DNA of 64,000 nt from Promethearchaeota archaeon (GCA_048941015.1 JBHLNZ010000005.1:1-64000); one strand, 5' to 3'; positions 1,078 to 6,920 are shown, counted from the first letter of the stretch. Translations and numbers: made by a program. Notes: generated from the letters alone by a model not told the origin.

Positions 1078-1239
1078 AATTAATATAATATTATTTCAAT
1101 CCATTAATTTAAAAAGATTATCTAAGCCCAGATTTTTAAAAAATTCTAACAAAGATTTTTACCAATAAAAATATAAATCCCCTATTGAGGTTGAATTGTA
1201 GACCCCAATCTAAAATTTAGAAATTAGTAAAAAAATCTA

Positions 1240-2481
1240 TTATGTCTTTTCTTCTATAATTTCTGCTTTTTTATCTTTTCGATATTTGAGAATATATTCG
1301 TATAACTCTGCTAAGAACTTTTCAAATTCCATTGGATTATAGGTTAAACCAAATTCTCTATGGAGATCTAATTTTTCTAAATCTTCCCACCGTAATCCAA
1401 CACCTAAAATTGGTATAAGATGTAATTCATTTTCACGTCCGATGTTTAATTCAAAAATGCTATCCTTTGAGCTTAAAGAATTTTGAGTTGAGATAAAGAC
1501 TAAGACTTGAGATTTTTGAATTGTTTTTTTCATCCATTTATCAATGTTACCTGTAAGGTCCGCTTCACAAAAATAAACATGTCCAATTTTTTTTTGCGTC
1601 CTAAGGAAATTTGCAATATCTTCAATACGATAACGATTAAAATCTTCAACCGAATGGCTAATAAACACACGCATCCCTTTTTTAAGCCTTTTTCCTAATT
1701 CAAAATACCGGATTGAAATCAATATGCCTAAAAGACAAATGATTATAATCATGAGCATGTAAAGAAACTCATCTGTGTAATCCGTAATTAAGCTGGATAA
1801 CTGATGGTAAATATTATAATAAAGCCAAAATAAGCTTAATAAAATAAAATGTGGCAATTTAATTCTAATACCAAAGAAGAAAAGGTATCCTGCTGCTAAA
1901 TACACGAGTAATATTTGGAGTGTCGTTAATGTTGTTCCAATAATTAGTGCTGAAGATTCTGAGGTCAGTTCCGGAGCAATTAAAAAATGATACAGTAATG
2001 TTATAATGAAATAAATAAGGTAAAGAATTGCAAATGAAGTGATATAATTTCCATAGTTTTTTTCGTTTTTAACCCCAAAATTAAAAAAGATAATGAAAAT
2101 CGCAGGCATAATAGCATAAGAGGAATACAAAGCAATTATATCAAATAAGCCAGATAAAGCAGGGTTCAATAATCGAATCAGCATTAAAAATAAGAAAAAA
2201 AATACAATATATATTAAAAGGAGAACATATCCCAATACCTTCAATGACTTAGTTTTTTCAAATTTTCTTTTATCTTTATCTAACTCATAGCCAGCGAAAA
2301 TCAATAGGGAGACATAAAAATACCCTGAAAATAGGAATAAAAATGGATAAAAAAAATAACCTAGACTTATTTCAAAATACCCATAAAAAAGTACTCTCTC
2401 TAAAACAATCTCAATTAATGTAATAAAAAGACTTAAAACTAGAGCTATTAAAATCTGGGAAATACTTCGAATGGAGATCAC
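1240..2481 (-). CDS. Polytopic membrane protein (~8 TM) with C-terminal TIR domain
   Basis: About 8 hydrophobic segments in aa 1-260, then RVFISHS...SQVLVFISTQNSLSSKDSIFEL...LIPI (TIR pattern with catalytic-position Glu). GTG start. Confidence 0.8.
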   Translation of the reverse strand: MISIRSISQILIALVLSLFITLIEIVLERVLFYGYFEISLGYFFYPFLFLFSGYFYVSLLIFAGYELDKDKRKFEKTKSLKVLGYVLLLIYIVFFFLFLMLIRLLNPALSGLFDIIALYSSYAIMPAIFIIFFNFGVKNEKNYGNYITSFAILYLIYFIITLLYHFLIAPELTSESSALIIGTTLTTLQILLVYLAAGYLFFFGIRIKLPHFILLSLFWLYYNIYHQLSSLITDYTDEFLYMLMIIIICLLGILISIRYFELGKRLKKGMRVFISHSVEDFNRYRIEDIANFLRTQKKIGHVYFCEADLTGNIDKWMKKTIQKSQVLVFISTQNSLSSKDSIFELNIGRENELHLIPILGVGLRWEDLEKLDLHREFGLTYNPMEFEKFLAELYEYILKYRKDKKAEIIEEKT

Positions 2482-2648
2482 TCTAAAAATTTAAATTAAT
2501 TTCCAATATTGGTCTTTATTCATATCTTTAATAAATAATTTTCTTTTTTTAGAGAATATAAGGAAATTAAGTCTTAAAAAGTTGGAAAAAATATGTAAAA
2601 TGTATGTGCTAAAAAGAAAAGTAATTAATAAAATAAATTAAAAAAAAA

Positions 2649-4631
2649 TTATGCAATTTCAATATCCATTTTTTTACGCTCTTCAAGTAAGGTATCCACA
2701 ACAGATGGATCTGCTAAGGTTGTAACATTACCAACATCTGACATTGCCGCGATAGCTTTTAGGATTCGACGCATGATTTTACCACTCCTCGTTTTTGGTA
2801 AATCATCTGCGAATTGAACCACATCTGGCTGAAAAACAGGACCAATTTCTTTTCTTACATGCATTTGTATATCTTTCTTAAGCTCTTTAGTCTTTTCAGC
2901 GCCTTGTATCAGTGTTACAAAAGCCCAGATAGCTTGTCCCTTGATTTTATGAGGAAATGGCGCTACTGCTGCTTCTGCTACTTTTGGATGAGATACAATC
3001 GCACTCTCGACTTCCATTGTACCAATACGATGACCAGATACTTTAATAACATCATCTAATCTTCCCAATATCCAGTAATAGCCATCTTCATCTCGTCGTG
3101 CGCCATCTCCAGTATAATAGTATCCAGGATATCTTTCAAGATAAGTTGATTTAAATCGTTCAGTATCTCCCCATACATCACGTAACATACCCGGCCAGGG
3201 TTGAGCCATTGCAAAATATCCTCCTTCATCCGGTTCAGTGACTTCATCACCTTCCAAATCAAATATCACCGGTTTAATACCTAGAAATGGCATACAACAT
3301 GAACCAGGTTTTGTAGGAGTCGCTGTAGCAATTGGAGTCATAATAAAACCGCCTGTTTCTGTTTGCCAGTAAGTGTCTACTATTGGACAACGCTCTTTAC
3401 CCACTACTCTATGATACCAAGTCCATGCTTCAGGATTAATTGGTTCTCCTACAGTTCCAAGAACTTTTAGTGAACTAAGATCGTGTTTTTTAACAGGATC
3501 ATCTCCATATCTCATAAGAGCACGGATAGCGGTAGGAGCAGTGTAAAAATGAGTTACTTTATGGCGTTCCACAATATCCCAAAATCGATCTACATCAGGA
3601 TATGTTGGAACCCCTTCGAACATCAATGTAGTAGCACCATTTGCCAGTGGACCATAAGTAATATAGGAATGTCCCGTAATCCAACCTATATCCGCAGTAC
3701 AATACCATATATCTCCTTCATGATAATTAAACACGATCCTATGCGTATAAGAAGTGTAAAGAAGATATCCTGCAGTAGTGTGTTTTACTCCTTTTGGTTT
3801 TCCAGTAGTTCCACTAGTATAGAGTATAAAGAGAGTATCTTCTGAATCCATTTGTTCAGGTTCACATTGTTCGCTCATTCCATCAATAAAGTCGTCATAC
3901 CAAATATCTTTATTAGTATGAGGAATTTCTCTACCTGATCGCTTTACAACAATGACATGCTCAATAGTAGGGACATTATCGATAATCTCGATAACATCGG
4001 CCATTTTTGGATAAAATTTTCCTGCTCTTACCGTTTCATCACTAGTAAATAGAAGTCTTGAGTCAGAGTCTTCAATTCTATCTTTAACAGCTTCTTTAGA
4101 GAATCCGCCGAATACAATAGAATGAATTACTCCGATTCTGACACATGCAAGCATAATAATTGCCAATTCTGGAACCATAGGAAGCCAGATTGTTACTCTA
4201 TCACCTTTCTTTAGCCCTAATTTTTTCATACCATTCGCAACTTTACTTACTTCTTTTAATAATTCACTGTAAGTATATGTTTTTACTTGACCTGGAGCAT
4301 CAGCTTCCCAGATTAATGCAATGTTGTTTCCTTTTCCATTCTTTACATGTCTATCGAGACAGTTATATGCAACATTAAGCTTGCCTCCTACAAACCATTT
4401 TCCAGGAAACAAGTCGGTCTTTTCCCATACTTTATCATATTGTTTGAACCAATCGAGTGATTTAGCTTGTTCACCCCAGAATCCTTCCATGTCTTCAATT
4501 GATTTCTTGTAAAGTTTTTGATATTCTTTAAATGACATCCCAGTTTTAGCGAATTTAGAATTAAGTTTGACAGGATCGAACTTACGAGTTTCAGTAAGAA
4601 TACTTTCCATCTTTTTATCTTCTTCTGACAT
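2649..4631 (-). CDS. acs: AMP-forming acetyl-CoA synthetase
   Basis: YTSGTTGKPKG, ADIGWITGHSY, DTYWQTETGG and LPKTRSGKIMRR motifs. Confidence 0.97.
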   Translation of the reverse strand: MSEEDKKMESILTETRKFDPVKLNSKFAKTGMSFKEYQKLYKKSIEDMEGFWGEQAKSLDWFKQYDKVWEKTDLFPGKWFVGGKLNVAYNCLDRHVKNGKGNNIALIWEADAPGQVKTYTYSELLKEVSKVANGMKKLGLKKGDRVTIWLPMVPELAIIMLACVRIGVIHSIVFGGFSKEAVKDRIEDSDSRLLFTSDETVRAGKFYPKMADVIEIIDNVPTIEHVIVVKRSGREIPHTNKDIWYDDFIDGMSEQCEPEQMDSEDTLFILYTSGTTGKPKGVKHTTAGYLLYTSYTHRIVFNYHEGDIWYCTADIGWITGHSYITYGPLANGATTLMFEGVPTYPDVDRFWDIVERHKVTHFYTAPTAIRALMRYGDDPVKKHDLSSLKVLGTVGEPINPEAWTWYHRVVGKERCPIVDTYWQTETGGFIMTPIATATPTKPGSCCMPFLGIKPVIFDLEGDEVTEPDEGGYFAMAQPWPGMLRDVWGDTERFKSTYLERYPGYYYTGDGARRDEDGYYWILGRLDDVIKVSGHRIGTMEVESAIVSHPKVAEAAVAPFPHKIKGQAIWAFVTLIQGAEKTKELKKDIQMHVRKEIGPVFQPDVVQFADDLPKTRSGKIMRRILKAIAAMSDVGNVTTLADPSVVDTLLEERKKMDIEIA

Positions 4632-5009
4632 AATATTTCACATTTTTGAATTTCGAATTTTTGCGATTTACATAAATTTATTTATTAAATAAGTTTTGTT
4701 AATTTTTTAGAGATTTTTATCCAATCCCATTATTTTCAAAGATTTTACTTTCATAAGGACGAATAACTCGTTAAAAAGAAATATCTTGAATTTAATTTAA
4801 ACATTTTATTTATAAATAATATAATATTTCGAGTTATCAACCTTGGATTAATAAATTCAGGTATAAGTGAATTTTTAGATTATAATCGAAATTATTCATA
4901 ATTTCGATAAAAATATTTTTAATTAGTTATTTGGAATTTCAAAAAAAATATATTCTTTAAGATATAAATAATTACAATAAGAACCATGGATCAAGATAGA
5001 TATTAAAAA

Positions 5010-6920
5010 ATGGAAAAAATTAACATAACTGATAAGGATTGGCGTGAAAAATGGAAAGAGAAAGAAATTTCTGTTCAAGAAGCAATAAAAAAAATTATTC
5101 CTGGAAATAGAGTATTTATCGATACGGCATGTTCTGAGCCACAAGCATTAACAGCAGAGTTAATTAAGTCCTCAGAACGCCTTATTGATACAGAATTAAT
5201 CCATTTTTTAACCATCTTCCCTGAAAAGTATTTTAAAGATAAAGCGGAAGATTTATTTAGACATAACGCATTTTTTATTGGAAAAACATTGCGAGAAGAA
5301 ATTAATAAAGGGCAATCTGACTATACTCCTATTTTTGCTAGTGAAATTCCTTCGCTGTTTCTCACTGGAAGAAAAAATTGTGATGTCGCACTTATACAAA
5401 TAACTCCGCCTGATCGTTATGGTTTTTGTTCTTTTGGGATTAATGTTGATGTAGCCAAACCAATTGCTCAATCGACTTTTTTAACTATTGCGGAAATTAA
5501 CCCTCAAATGCCACGGACTTTAGGAAATAGCTTTATACATATGAAAGAAATTGATTATTTTGTTTTTAATGATGTCCCATTATTAGAATTTAATTTTAAA
5601 GAGGGAGATCCTATTATTACTGAAAAAATAGGAAAAAATGTGGCAAATCTTATTGAAAATAAGTCTACAATTCATATTGGTAATGGATATTTACCAAATG
5701 CATGCCTAAAATATTTAATGGATAAAAAGGATCTTGGTATGCATAGCCACTATATTACGGATAATATAATCCCATTAATAGAAAATACAGTTTTAACTTG
5801 TAGAAAAAAAAATTTCCATCCAGAAAAAATCATTACAAGTTTTGCATTAGGCACGAAAAAATTATATGATTTTGTCAATAACAATCCTTACATTGAATTT
5901 TTTCCTTCTGATTATGTATGTAATCCTCGATATATTAGTATGAATAAAAAGATGGTTTCTATAAACCAAGCTTTACAAATAGATTTAACAGGACAAGTAA
6001 ATGCCTCTACAAAAGGTTATAATTTTTATTCAGGAATTGGGGATACTGTAGATTTTATGCGAGGTTCCGCATTTTCAAAAGGAGGGAAACCAATTATAGT
6101 TTTACAATCAACAAAGAAAAATGGAAGTGAATCTACAATTGTGCCTCATTTAGATGAGGGTGCAGGTGTAATATTGTCTCGAGCTGATGTTCATTACGTC
6201 GTTACTGAATGGGGAGTTGCCTATTTGCATGGAAAAACAATAAGAGAACGTGTTATAGAGCTCATTTGTATTGCTCATCCTGATTTTCGAGAAGAATTAT
6301 TAGAACATGCTAAAAGTTTAAATTATATCTATTCAGATCAAAAACTTCCTTGTGATGCTGATGGAAATATATGTATTTATCCAAGCCAGTATGAAACGAT
6401 ATATACAATTCATAACAATGAAAAAATTAGAATTCGTCCTGTAAAGACTACAGATGAACCTTTACTAAAAGAATTATATTATTCTTTAAATGAAAGGGAC
6501 AGATATCTTCGATTTTTTGAGTTGAGAAAAGAATTTACCCATTCAAAAACTCAAAATGAAGTAAATATTGATTATACTAATATCTTTTCAATTGGAGCTT
6601 TTAGAGGAGAAATTGGAAAAGAAGAAATGGTTGGAAATGCTACATATCATTTAAATCCGAAAAATAATATGGCAGAATATAGCTTCCTTGTTAAAGAGGC
6701 TTATAGAGGGAAAGGGATTGGTTCATTTTTATATCACCATCTTATTGTTATTGCTAAGGAAAAAGGAATAAAAGGATTTTATGGTAATATACATATTCAA
6801 AATAAAAGCACTGTCCAAATTATTCGAAAAGGAGGTTTTACAAAAATAACTCCTCCAGAAGCAGGAGAAAAAGAATTATTTTATGAGGTTTTTTTTCATA
6901 AGGAAAACTCAATTGATTAA
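5010..6920 (+). CDS. Acetyl-CoA hydrolase/CoA-transferase-like domain fused to C-terminal Pat-type GNAT acetyltransferase
   Basis: DVALIQITPPD, EINPQMPRT, DLTGQV and VVTEWGVAYLHGK; C-terminal IRPVKTTDE...YLRFF...IDY...AEYSFLV...RGKGIG. Confidence 0.88.
   Translation: MEKINITDKDWREKWKEKEISVQEAIKKIIPGNRVFIDTACSEPQALTAELIKSSERLIDTELIHFLTIFPEKYFKDKAEDLFRHNAFFIGKTLREEINKGQSDYTPIFASEIPSLFLTGRKNCDVALIQITPPDRYGFCSFGINVDVAKPIAQSTFLTIAEINPQMPRTLGNSFIHMKEIDYFVFNDVPLLEFNFKEGDPIITEKIGKNVANLIENKSTIHIGNGYLPNACLKYLMDKKDLGMHSHYITDNIIPLIENTVLTCRKKNFHPEKIITSFALGTKKLYDFVNNNPYIEFFPSDYVCNPRYISMNKKMVSINQALQIDLTGQVNASTKGYNFYSGIGDTVDFMRGSAFSKGGKPIIVLQSTKKNGSESTIVPHLDEGAGVILSRADVHYVVTEWGVAYLHGKTIRERVIELICIAHPDFREELLEHAKSLNYIYSDQKLPCDADGNICIYPSQYETIYTIHNNEKIRIRPVKTTDEPLLKELYYSLNERDRYLRFFELRKEFTHSKTQNEVNIDYTNIFSIGAFRGEIGKEEMVGNATYHLNPKNNMAEYSFLVKEAYRGKGIGSFLYHHLIVIAKEKGIKGFYGNIHIQNKSTVQIIRKGGFTKITPPEAGEKELFYEVFFHKENSID

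Follow-up and report, generated by a model that had tools for sequence, protein, structure and literature searches.

At positions 1240 to 2481 of the DNA analysed here (the "window": 64,000 nucleotides from a Promethearchaeota archaeon, GCA_048941015.1 JBHLNZ010000005.1:1-64000) lies an intact frame of 413 amino acids. It is read on the minus strand, from 2481 to 1240, between a GTG start and a TAA stop (list of open frames and translation); the same GTG start is seen in L013 and L025, which are among its closest orthologs. The product is predicted to consist of an eight-helix membrane domain joined by a short linker to a C-terminal TIR domain (Table 1). Upstream is acs, the gene for acetyl-CoA synthetase; downstream are genes for a B12-binding corrinoid protein and then for a URO-D-type methyltransferase. 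The gene is probably transcribed alone, since A/T-rich spacers flank it on both sides and runs of T follow both stop codons. A side observation concerns acs: the gene that faces it head to head encodes a CoA-transferase-like domain with a GNAT acetyltransferase fused to it (window 2649-6920).

Table 1. Coordinates in the window of the eight-helix TIR gene, its parts and its flanking regions
Feature	Position	Strand	Basis
Whole gene: 413 codons and stop; eight-helix membrane domain, linker, TIR	1240..2481	-	Open frame, orthologs, dN/dS
Membrane domain, residues 1-258: eight predicted helices, both termini inside	1708..2481	-	Hydropathy, AlphaFold2, loop charges
Inner-face motif, loop between helices 2 and 3, L67...F74: L-x-K-D-K/E-R-x-F	2260..2283	-	L67 invariant, F74 nearly so
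Inner-face turn, helices 4-5: F135-G-x-x-N139-x-x-x-Y143-G144-N145-Y146	2044..2079	-	G136, N139, G144 and N145 invariant in 23 family members
Inner-face motif after helix 6: F202-F-G-I-R206-I-K	1858..1878	-	F202 invariant; F203, G204 and R206 nearly so
Juxtamembrane linker, residues 259-270: basic; conserved E261, G263, G269	1672..1707	-	Model pLDDT, alignment
TIR domain, residues 271-405	1267..1671	-	Pfam TIR_2, VIA-align, Foldseek, dN/dS
Glu344 codon: residue that corresponds in position to the TIR catalytic glutamate, at the beginning of the helix that follows the third strand	1450..1452	-	Invariance
Upstream intergenic region, 167 bases: A/T-rich, T run after the acs stop; probable own promoter	2482..2648	-	Reading of the sequence
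Downstream intergenic region, 162 bases: T run directly after the stop; probable terminator	1078..1239	-	Reading of the sequence

The gene is under purifying selection, and the TIR domain is its most constrained part: measured against two orthologs, dN/dS is 0.17-0.26 for the whole gene, 0.08-0.15 for the TIR part (residues 267-413) and 0.23-0.35 for the membrane part. Conservation, homologs and fold are far beyond chance. No defence gene is found among the immediate neighbours, the gene lies outside any defence island, and an adjacent effector of the Thoeris type (SIR2-SLOG, Macro-TM or others) is present neither in the window nor in the syntenic locus L025. PADLOC returned weak matches to ThsB profiles only (E 8e-5), and a search of NCBIfam with the protein returned no match.

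A preliminary description had read the locus as about eight transmembrane helices followed by a TIR domain (at about 1260-1677, with FISHS and the Glu of SIFEL as its marks), an archaeal transmembrane-TIR architecture with no obvious defence neighbours. It had pointed to a profile search, the fold of the C-terminus, the topology, the structure of the helix bundle and the spread of the architecture across Asgard genomes as the matters to look into. The hydropathy scan and an AlphaFold2 model both give eight helices; the TIR domain delimited here agrees with the range given; FISHS is located at residues 273-277 and the glutamate at residue 344. The Asgard origin holds, all of the named homologs being Asgard, and the neighbours are those listed above.

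The TIR domain and its glutamate

The C-terminal domain scores above the curated cut-off (28 bits) of the Pfam family TIR_2 (PF13676): the whole protein reaches 30.9 bits and the isolated domain 34.0 bits, so that the profile search bears out the first reading of the sequence. So does the fold: in the AlphaFold2 model of the whole protein (mean pLDDT 81) the C-terminus has the flavodoxin-like TIR fold (VIA-align Z 15.2-13.5 over 120-137 residues), and Foldseek assigns it a probability of 1.0 of relationship to the TIR domains of SPARTA, MyD88 and SARM1. The best VIA-align match is C. elegans TIR-1 (Z 15.2, rmsd 2.8, 130 residues aligned), followed by RPS4 (Z 14.7), the SARM1 TIR (Z 14.6), Hydra TRR-2 (Z 14.0) and ThsB (6lhy, Z 13.9), all five over 120-133 residues at rmsd 2.7-3.1; these five scores span only about one Z unit and accordingly do not tell which class of TIR is closest. 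The TIRs of IL-1RAcPb, IL-18Rbeta and MyD88 follow (Z 13-13.7).

Identity to SARM1 and TIR-1 in these structural alignments is only 12-22%, and no solved TIR was matched by sequence with the family profile, with the single TIR domain or with a TIR-only profile. Because the solved TIRs are too divergent in sequence, it is from motif and secondary-structure position that E344 is taken to be equivalent to the catalytic glutamate of TIR enzymes: in the AlphaFold2 model it starts the helix after the third strand, within the motif S-x-x-S-x-D-x-x-x-E-L. Its conservation is complete wherever it was followed: in 23 of 23 members of the eight-helix family, in 30 of 30 further TIR modules of the subfamily (from 29 other genomes), and, as a glutamate at the corresponding position, in all 12 aligned TIR domains of the organism's own genome. 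The same motif, and F-I-S-H in strand A, align with the other TIR_2 domains of that genome. Equally invariant (30 of 30 modules) is a stretch following strand B, C-E-x-x-L-x-G-N-I-D-x-W-M, which by its position would be the BB-loop region.

What does an invariant glutamate promise? A survey of TIR domains concluded that this residue is required for NADase activity where such activity exists and that its presence is no reliable predictor of activity (PMC7075850). By analogy with the enzymes, we infer that the TIR domain of the eight-helix protein may cleave NAD+.

The membrane domain and its free-standing relatives

Kyte-Doolittle hydropathy and AlphaFold2 agree on eight helices, at residues 4-32, 40-68, 77-105, 107-138, 144-168, 175-207, 210-234 and 239-267. 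Modelled alone, the membrane domain attains a pLDDT of 86.8 and a pTM of 0.84; the linker that follows it is the lowest-confidence segment of the whole-protein model (pLDDT below 50 at residues 260-268). The helix bundle which the preliminary description had singled out for structural prediction thus has an eight-helix model, and a convincing match among solved folds did not accompany it: the best VIA-align scores (Z 9.3 at rmsd 6.9) are to generic helix bundles and the best Foldseek match has an E value of 0.8. No Pfam family matched the domain, and its features in the ESM Atlas (best scores 0.76-0.79) are uninformative. The absence of a recognisable fold relative means that there is no direct support for calling the domain a "sensor" rather than an "anchor" or a "pore."

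The orientation of the domain is indicated by its charges. Averaged over 23 family members, lysines and arginines number 13.3 in the predicted inside segments (the N-terminus, loops 2-3, 4-5 and 6-7, and the stretch after helix 8) and 0.7 in the four outside loops, a bias by which both the N-terminus and the TIR domain are predicted to be cytoplasmic, the side on which a TIR domain had been expected. Independent support for an inside N-terminus comes from a relative, L017 (L017:8711-11119, plus strand), a stop-to-stop frame of 802 codons that specifies, in order, a signal-like helix, parallel beta-helix repeats of the NosD type, one helix, the basic stretch RRRSSR, the eight-helix domain and TIR: this order is coherent only if the eight-helix domain starts inside. 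(A technical note: there is no ATG, GTG or TTG in the first 160 codons of this frame, which either uses an unusual start codon or is damaged at its 5' end.)

The outer loops are of at most 10 residues and poorly conserved, so that any ligand would have to act in the membrane interior or at the inner face. The conserved residues of the domain are cytoplasmic (the three inner-face motifs of Table 1) and this, together with the short and variable outer loops, argues against a classical outward-facing ligand site. When the more distant, free-standing homologs described below are added to the alignment, G136 is still invariant and N139 and G144 are nearly so.

A profile of the membrane domain alone retrieves just 27 proteins from 1.84 billion representative proteins, and no fused form of greater length was found in that protein collection. 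The distant matches of the profile are free-standing membrane proteins of about 200 amino acids from the same archaea, which share two of the inner-face motifs (L-x-K-D-E-R-x-F and F-G-x-K-N-x-x-x-Y-G). Of 131 genomes of the family, 48 encode these free-standing homologs, which are multi-copy and often arranged in tandem (loci L074-L085; for example L075:7843-8454, L079:7764-9167 and L080:8126-9429); they are found amid housekeeping genes, with a TIR gene nearby in one of 12 loci. A two-gene, Thoeris-like pairing of free-standing homologs with TIR genes was considered and rejected on this count, TIR genes being near in only that one locus of the 12 and the conserved neighbours being housekeeping genes. 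In five genomes, as a separate observation, the free-standing homolog is part of a conserved block that adjoins the gene for phosphoglycerate kinase and is near a gene for a Ras-family GTPase. A relationship to Bax inhibitors was also entertained: a Bax1-I match in one free-standing homolog is sub-threshold (E 3e-5) and the Foldseek match to YetJ has an E value of 3.6, and the proposal is unsupported. To judge by its sequence, then, the membrane domain represents an uncharacterised, Asgard-restricted family of putative membrane proteins, and a new one.

A repertoire of TIR proteins

In the genome from which the window comes (3.59 Mb in 144 contigs), 13 open frames encode a TIR domain. Five of its proteins share one TIR subfamily (scores of 165-265 bits with the family profile, 44-68% identity), which is attached to quite different partners. 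The paralogs are: 1) a second eight-helix TIR protein, of 411 amino acids (contig C134); 2) a protein of 547 amino acids in which a signal-like helix precedes a WD40-like beta-propeller with many N-x-S/T sequons, a single helix, the basic sequence RRKKLKAR, and TIR; 3) a protein of 1067 amino acids in which a signal-like helix is followed by LVIVD repeats, TSP3 repeats, a single helix and TIR; and 4) a soluble LRR-TIR protein of 683 amino acids (contig C54:1682-3733, L029). Both single-pass paralogs have a basic stop-transfer stretch between helix and TIR. A further four TIR proteins of this genome, more distantly related, are likewise multi-pass membrane proteins. Contigs C87 (29577-30878) and C58 (125270-126535) encode multi-pass proteins of 433 and 421 amino acids, with about seven helices and a more canonical TIR_2 end; against the profile of the eight-helix family, their membrane parts gave no match.

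Some of these genes are neighbours. On contig C114 (L028:3100-16417) four TIR genes lie within 13 kb: one for a multi-pass TIR, one for a single-pass TIR with a beta-propeller, one for a single-pass TIR with LVIVD/TSP3 repeats and one for a multi-WD40 TIR. These four enclose a gene, on the opposite strand, for a protein of 576 amino acids with a C-terminal NUDIX domain. Co-occurrence of this Nudix gene with the eight-helix TIR gene was considered as a link and set aside as uninformative, the Nudix gene being present in essentially every genome of the genus.

Genes for surface proteins of the NosD, or right-handed beta-helix, kind are found 0.2-3.5 kb from eight-helix TIR genes at three loci (L014:4097-6505, L015:1-776 and L024:6217-8649) that represent two paralog groups, with the fused form in a fourth locus, the L017 relative already described. 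Given about ten copies of such genes per genome, this proximity is more than chance would lead one to expect; two of the loci are orthologous. In the LRR-TIR proteins (L029 and loci L040-L058) the LRR/TIR junction is very conserved (…KVPDLIR-Y-LRKKATI-VF). All told, the eight-helix TIR gene is, as far as can be read from these domain orders, a member of a lineage-specific repertoire of putatively membrane-tethered TIR proteins and no isolated oddity.

How far does this repertoire extend? The whole protein has about 40 homologs, the named ones all from Asgard metagenome bins, with orthologs 80-97% identical over their full length. The survey of Asgard genomes foreseen in the preliminary description places the TIR subfamily (E <= 1e-25) in 36 genomes, in a sample comprising the organism's own and 300 others of the phylum; all 36 belong to its own family (32 of 68) or to a sister family (three of seven), and none of the other 225 sampled genomes has it. 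Among the genomes sampled, the subfamily is thus confined to two related families. Its commonest architecture is a soluble LRR-TIR of about 530-565 amino acids (LRR-TIR proteins as a class range over about 530-680), and it is mainly in the window's genus that the membrane forms occur; there, about seven of 37 genomes have the full-length eight-helix form, with up to three paralogs per genome falling into groups of roughly 85%, 64% and 40% identity.

The order acs, eight-helix TIR gene, B12-binding protein, URO-D methyltransferase is common to the window and its closest ortholog (L025) only: in 13 genomes that share the B12/URO-D pair, the TIR gene stands upstream of it in two. No neighbour is conserved across the paralog groups, and no relatives were found on viral contigs. 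With presence in about seven of 37 genomes and at two of 13 loci, up to three paralogs and varying sites, the eight-helix TIR gene has the pattern of an accessory gene, mobile within its lineage, and not of a core gene. The housekeeping signalling that had been suggested as a possible role fits this pattern poorly.

Input, output and the alternatives

TIR domains serve immune signalling in animals, plants and bacteria alike, and in every characterised enzymatic TIR activation is achieved by bringing TIR domains together. In the genomes examined here the same TIR output follows many different modules: a propeller or LVIVD/TSP3 repeats and one helix, a beta-helix and the eight-helix domain, or soluble LRRs. 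The simplest reading of this combinatorial arrangement is one of N-terminal input, then TIR output. For the eight-helix protein it would take the following form: by way of a short and flexible linker, the membrane domain would keep a catalytic-type TIR at the membrane's inner face; it would serve as the input, sensing a cue within the membrane or at its surface, or at a minimum localising the protein; a stimulus would bring TIR domains together, by analogy with the characterised enzymes; and the assembled TIRs would cleave NAD+, generating an ADP-ribose-derived signal or depleting NAD+. That the protein is a membrane-embedded sensor or anchor which drives a catalytic TIR output is a proposition on which we are evenly poised between acceptance and doubt; a receptor role is what we infer for it. 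The varied input modules and the patchy, multi-copy distribution point to a part in conflict, defence or the sensing of the environment rather than in core physiology.

Several features do not sit comfortably with this account: 1) conserved motifs at the cytoplasmic face and short, variable outer loops do not look like an outward ligand site; 2) for a defence gene, the orthologs are strongly conserved in sequence; 3) the gene is outside any defence island, has nothing beyond the weak ThsB hits in PADLOC, and had no homolog in the search of viral contigs.

If the conserved face of the membrane domain is the inner one, might not the domain be the effector rather than the input? One can think of a pore or channel that is opened by oligomerisation of the TIR domains, or by a TIR-made nucleotide bound at the basic inner face, and of the whole as a Thoeris-like suicide or dormancy device compressed into one protein. 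The domain's most conserved motifs are indeed cytoplasmic and include basic residues, and the existence of its core as free-standing proteins of about 200 amino acids implies a function of its own. There is precedent as well: several Thoeris types have membrane-spanning effectors with positively charged nucleotide pockets (bioRxiv 10.64898/2025.12.03.692087). Against the proposal, these free-standing homologs keep company with housekeeping genes (phosphoglycerate kinase, a Ras-like GTPase) and, with the one exception in 12, not with TIR genes; the same TIR module is elsewhere attached to sensor-like outer domains through a single helix, which could form no pore alone; and a channel fold was not detected by VIA-align or Foldseek. 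On this showing an effector pore is unlikely.

A second alternative leaves the membrane domain its place and takes the chemistry away: TIR would be a non-enzymatic assembly domain, as it is in animal TLRs and MyD88, recruiting other TIRs of its subfamily, for example the soluble LRR-TIR. Five proteins of one genome carry near-identical TIR modules; the putative BB-loop region, a part of the domain that is used in TIR-TIR contacts, is invariant in the 30 modules compared; and the glutamate, as already noted, predicts activity poorly (PMC7075850). The difficulty lies with that same glutamate, whose invariance in every copy examined is hard to explain without catalysis. Nor are the two functions opposed in known TIR enzymes: SARM1, plant TIRs and AbTir show that assembly and catalysis are not exclusive. 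Pure scaffolding is accordingly an improbable account of the conservation. Least probable is a membrane-tethered nucleoside- or nucleotide-processing enzyme of ordinary metabolism, of the 2'-deoxyribosyltransferase, MilB or DNPH1 type: such enzymes are among the fold matches (MilB Z 13.8, 2'-deoxyribosyltransferases Z 11.9-12.4, DNPH1), 1-3 Z units below the TIRs, but it is TIR_2 that scores above its Pfam cut-off and no nucleoside-transferase family is matched, the motifs align with other TIR_2 domains of the genome, and the accessory distribution is unlike that of core metabolism.

Where, then, does a sensor or anchor with a catalytic TIR output stand among known systems? SARM1 and TIR-1 are among the best-scoring fold matches of the eight-helix protein, and with them it shares the glutamate at the position of the catalytic residue and the order in which a regulatory or localising N-terminal region precedes a C-terminal TIR; unlike them it has no ARM or SAM domains, and identity is at the low level given above. 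With Thoeris ThsB it has in common the TIR fold, a TIR_2 score above cut-off, the weak PADLOC match and a glutamate at the catalytic position; it differs in lacking an adjacent effector gene, in the fusion of its TIR to an eight-helix membrane domain and in a sequence too divergent for matching.

The Toll-like and IL-1 receptors and Hydra TRR-2 resemble it in having a C-terminal cytoplasmic TIR after the last helix and a basic juxtamembrane stretch, and Hydra TRR-2, IL-1RAcPb and IL-18Rbeta are found among its fold matches. The receptor layout itself is not that of the eight-helix protein, with its eight helices and no outer domain; it is the single-pass paralogs in the same genome that have the type-I arrangement of outer domain, one helix and TIR, with a propeller or LVIVD repeats in place of LRRs. 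Animal receptor TIRs are generally without a glutamate at the catalytic position, whereas here it is invariant; a death-domain adaptor pathway is not evident in the archaeon, and the comparison furnishes no evidence for common descent of the architecture.

Bacteria have multi-pass sensor modules with cytoplasmic kinase or cyclase outputs (7TMR-DISM, MASE and MHYT), the first of which adds an outer domain. The eight-helix protein follows the same plan of a polytopic membrane module and then a cytoplasmic output, and L017 adds an outer beta-helix just as 7TMR-DISM adds its outer domain; here the output is a TIR, not a kinase or cyclase, and no relationship in sequence or fold to these modules was detected. 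Finally, Rst_2TM_1TM_TIR, listed among Asgard defence systems (PMC11291487), likewise combines membrane helices and TIR in a prokaryotic defence context; it is a multi-gene system with one- and two-helix proteins, unlike the one gene with eight helices of the present case, and the PADLOC models for it did not match the eight-helix protein.

To our knowledge, the TIRs described from prokaryotes act in nearly all cases as sensors or effectors in the cytoplasm. Full-text literature searches found no paper on membrane-tethered TIR proteins in Asgard archaea, and a survey of Asgard defence mentions TIR only within catalogued bacterial-type systems (PMC11291487). What the window presents, then, is a TIR protein whose multi-pass membrane partner is undescribed, within an undescribed Asgard repertoire of membrane TIRs. 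One conserved, enzyme-type TIR tied to varied membrane modules would offer a way of testing whether the membrane, or the cell's exterior, can drive prokaryotic TIR enzymes. Asgard archaea are the closest known prokaryotic relatives of eukaryotes, and their repertoire would show by what routes receptor-like TIR layouts can originate.

A bolder proposal takes the repertoire as a whole: the eight-helix and single-pass TIR proteins would together perform outside-in or membrane-to-cytoplasm signalling, with sensors that cluster a common catalytic TIR and a shared component that reads its NAD+-derived product. If true, prokaryotes would possess a pathway that is laid out as in Toll-like receptors and works by the chemistry of SARM1 and Thoeris; we regard this proposal as rather doubtful. 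The candidate for the downstream reader in such a pathway is the 576-amino acid Nudix protein within the C114 cluster of TIR genes. Comparison of coordinates places the gene for this protein beside single-pass TIR genes in the organism's own genome and in three related ones, all four of the same genus.
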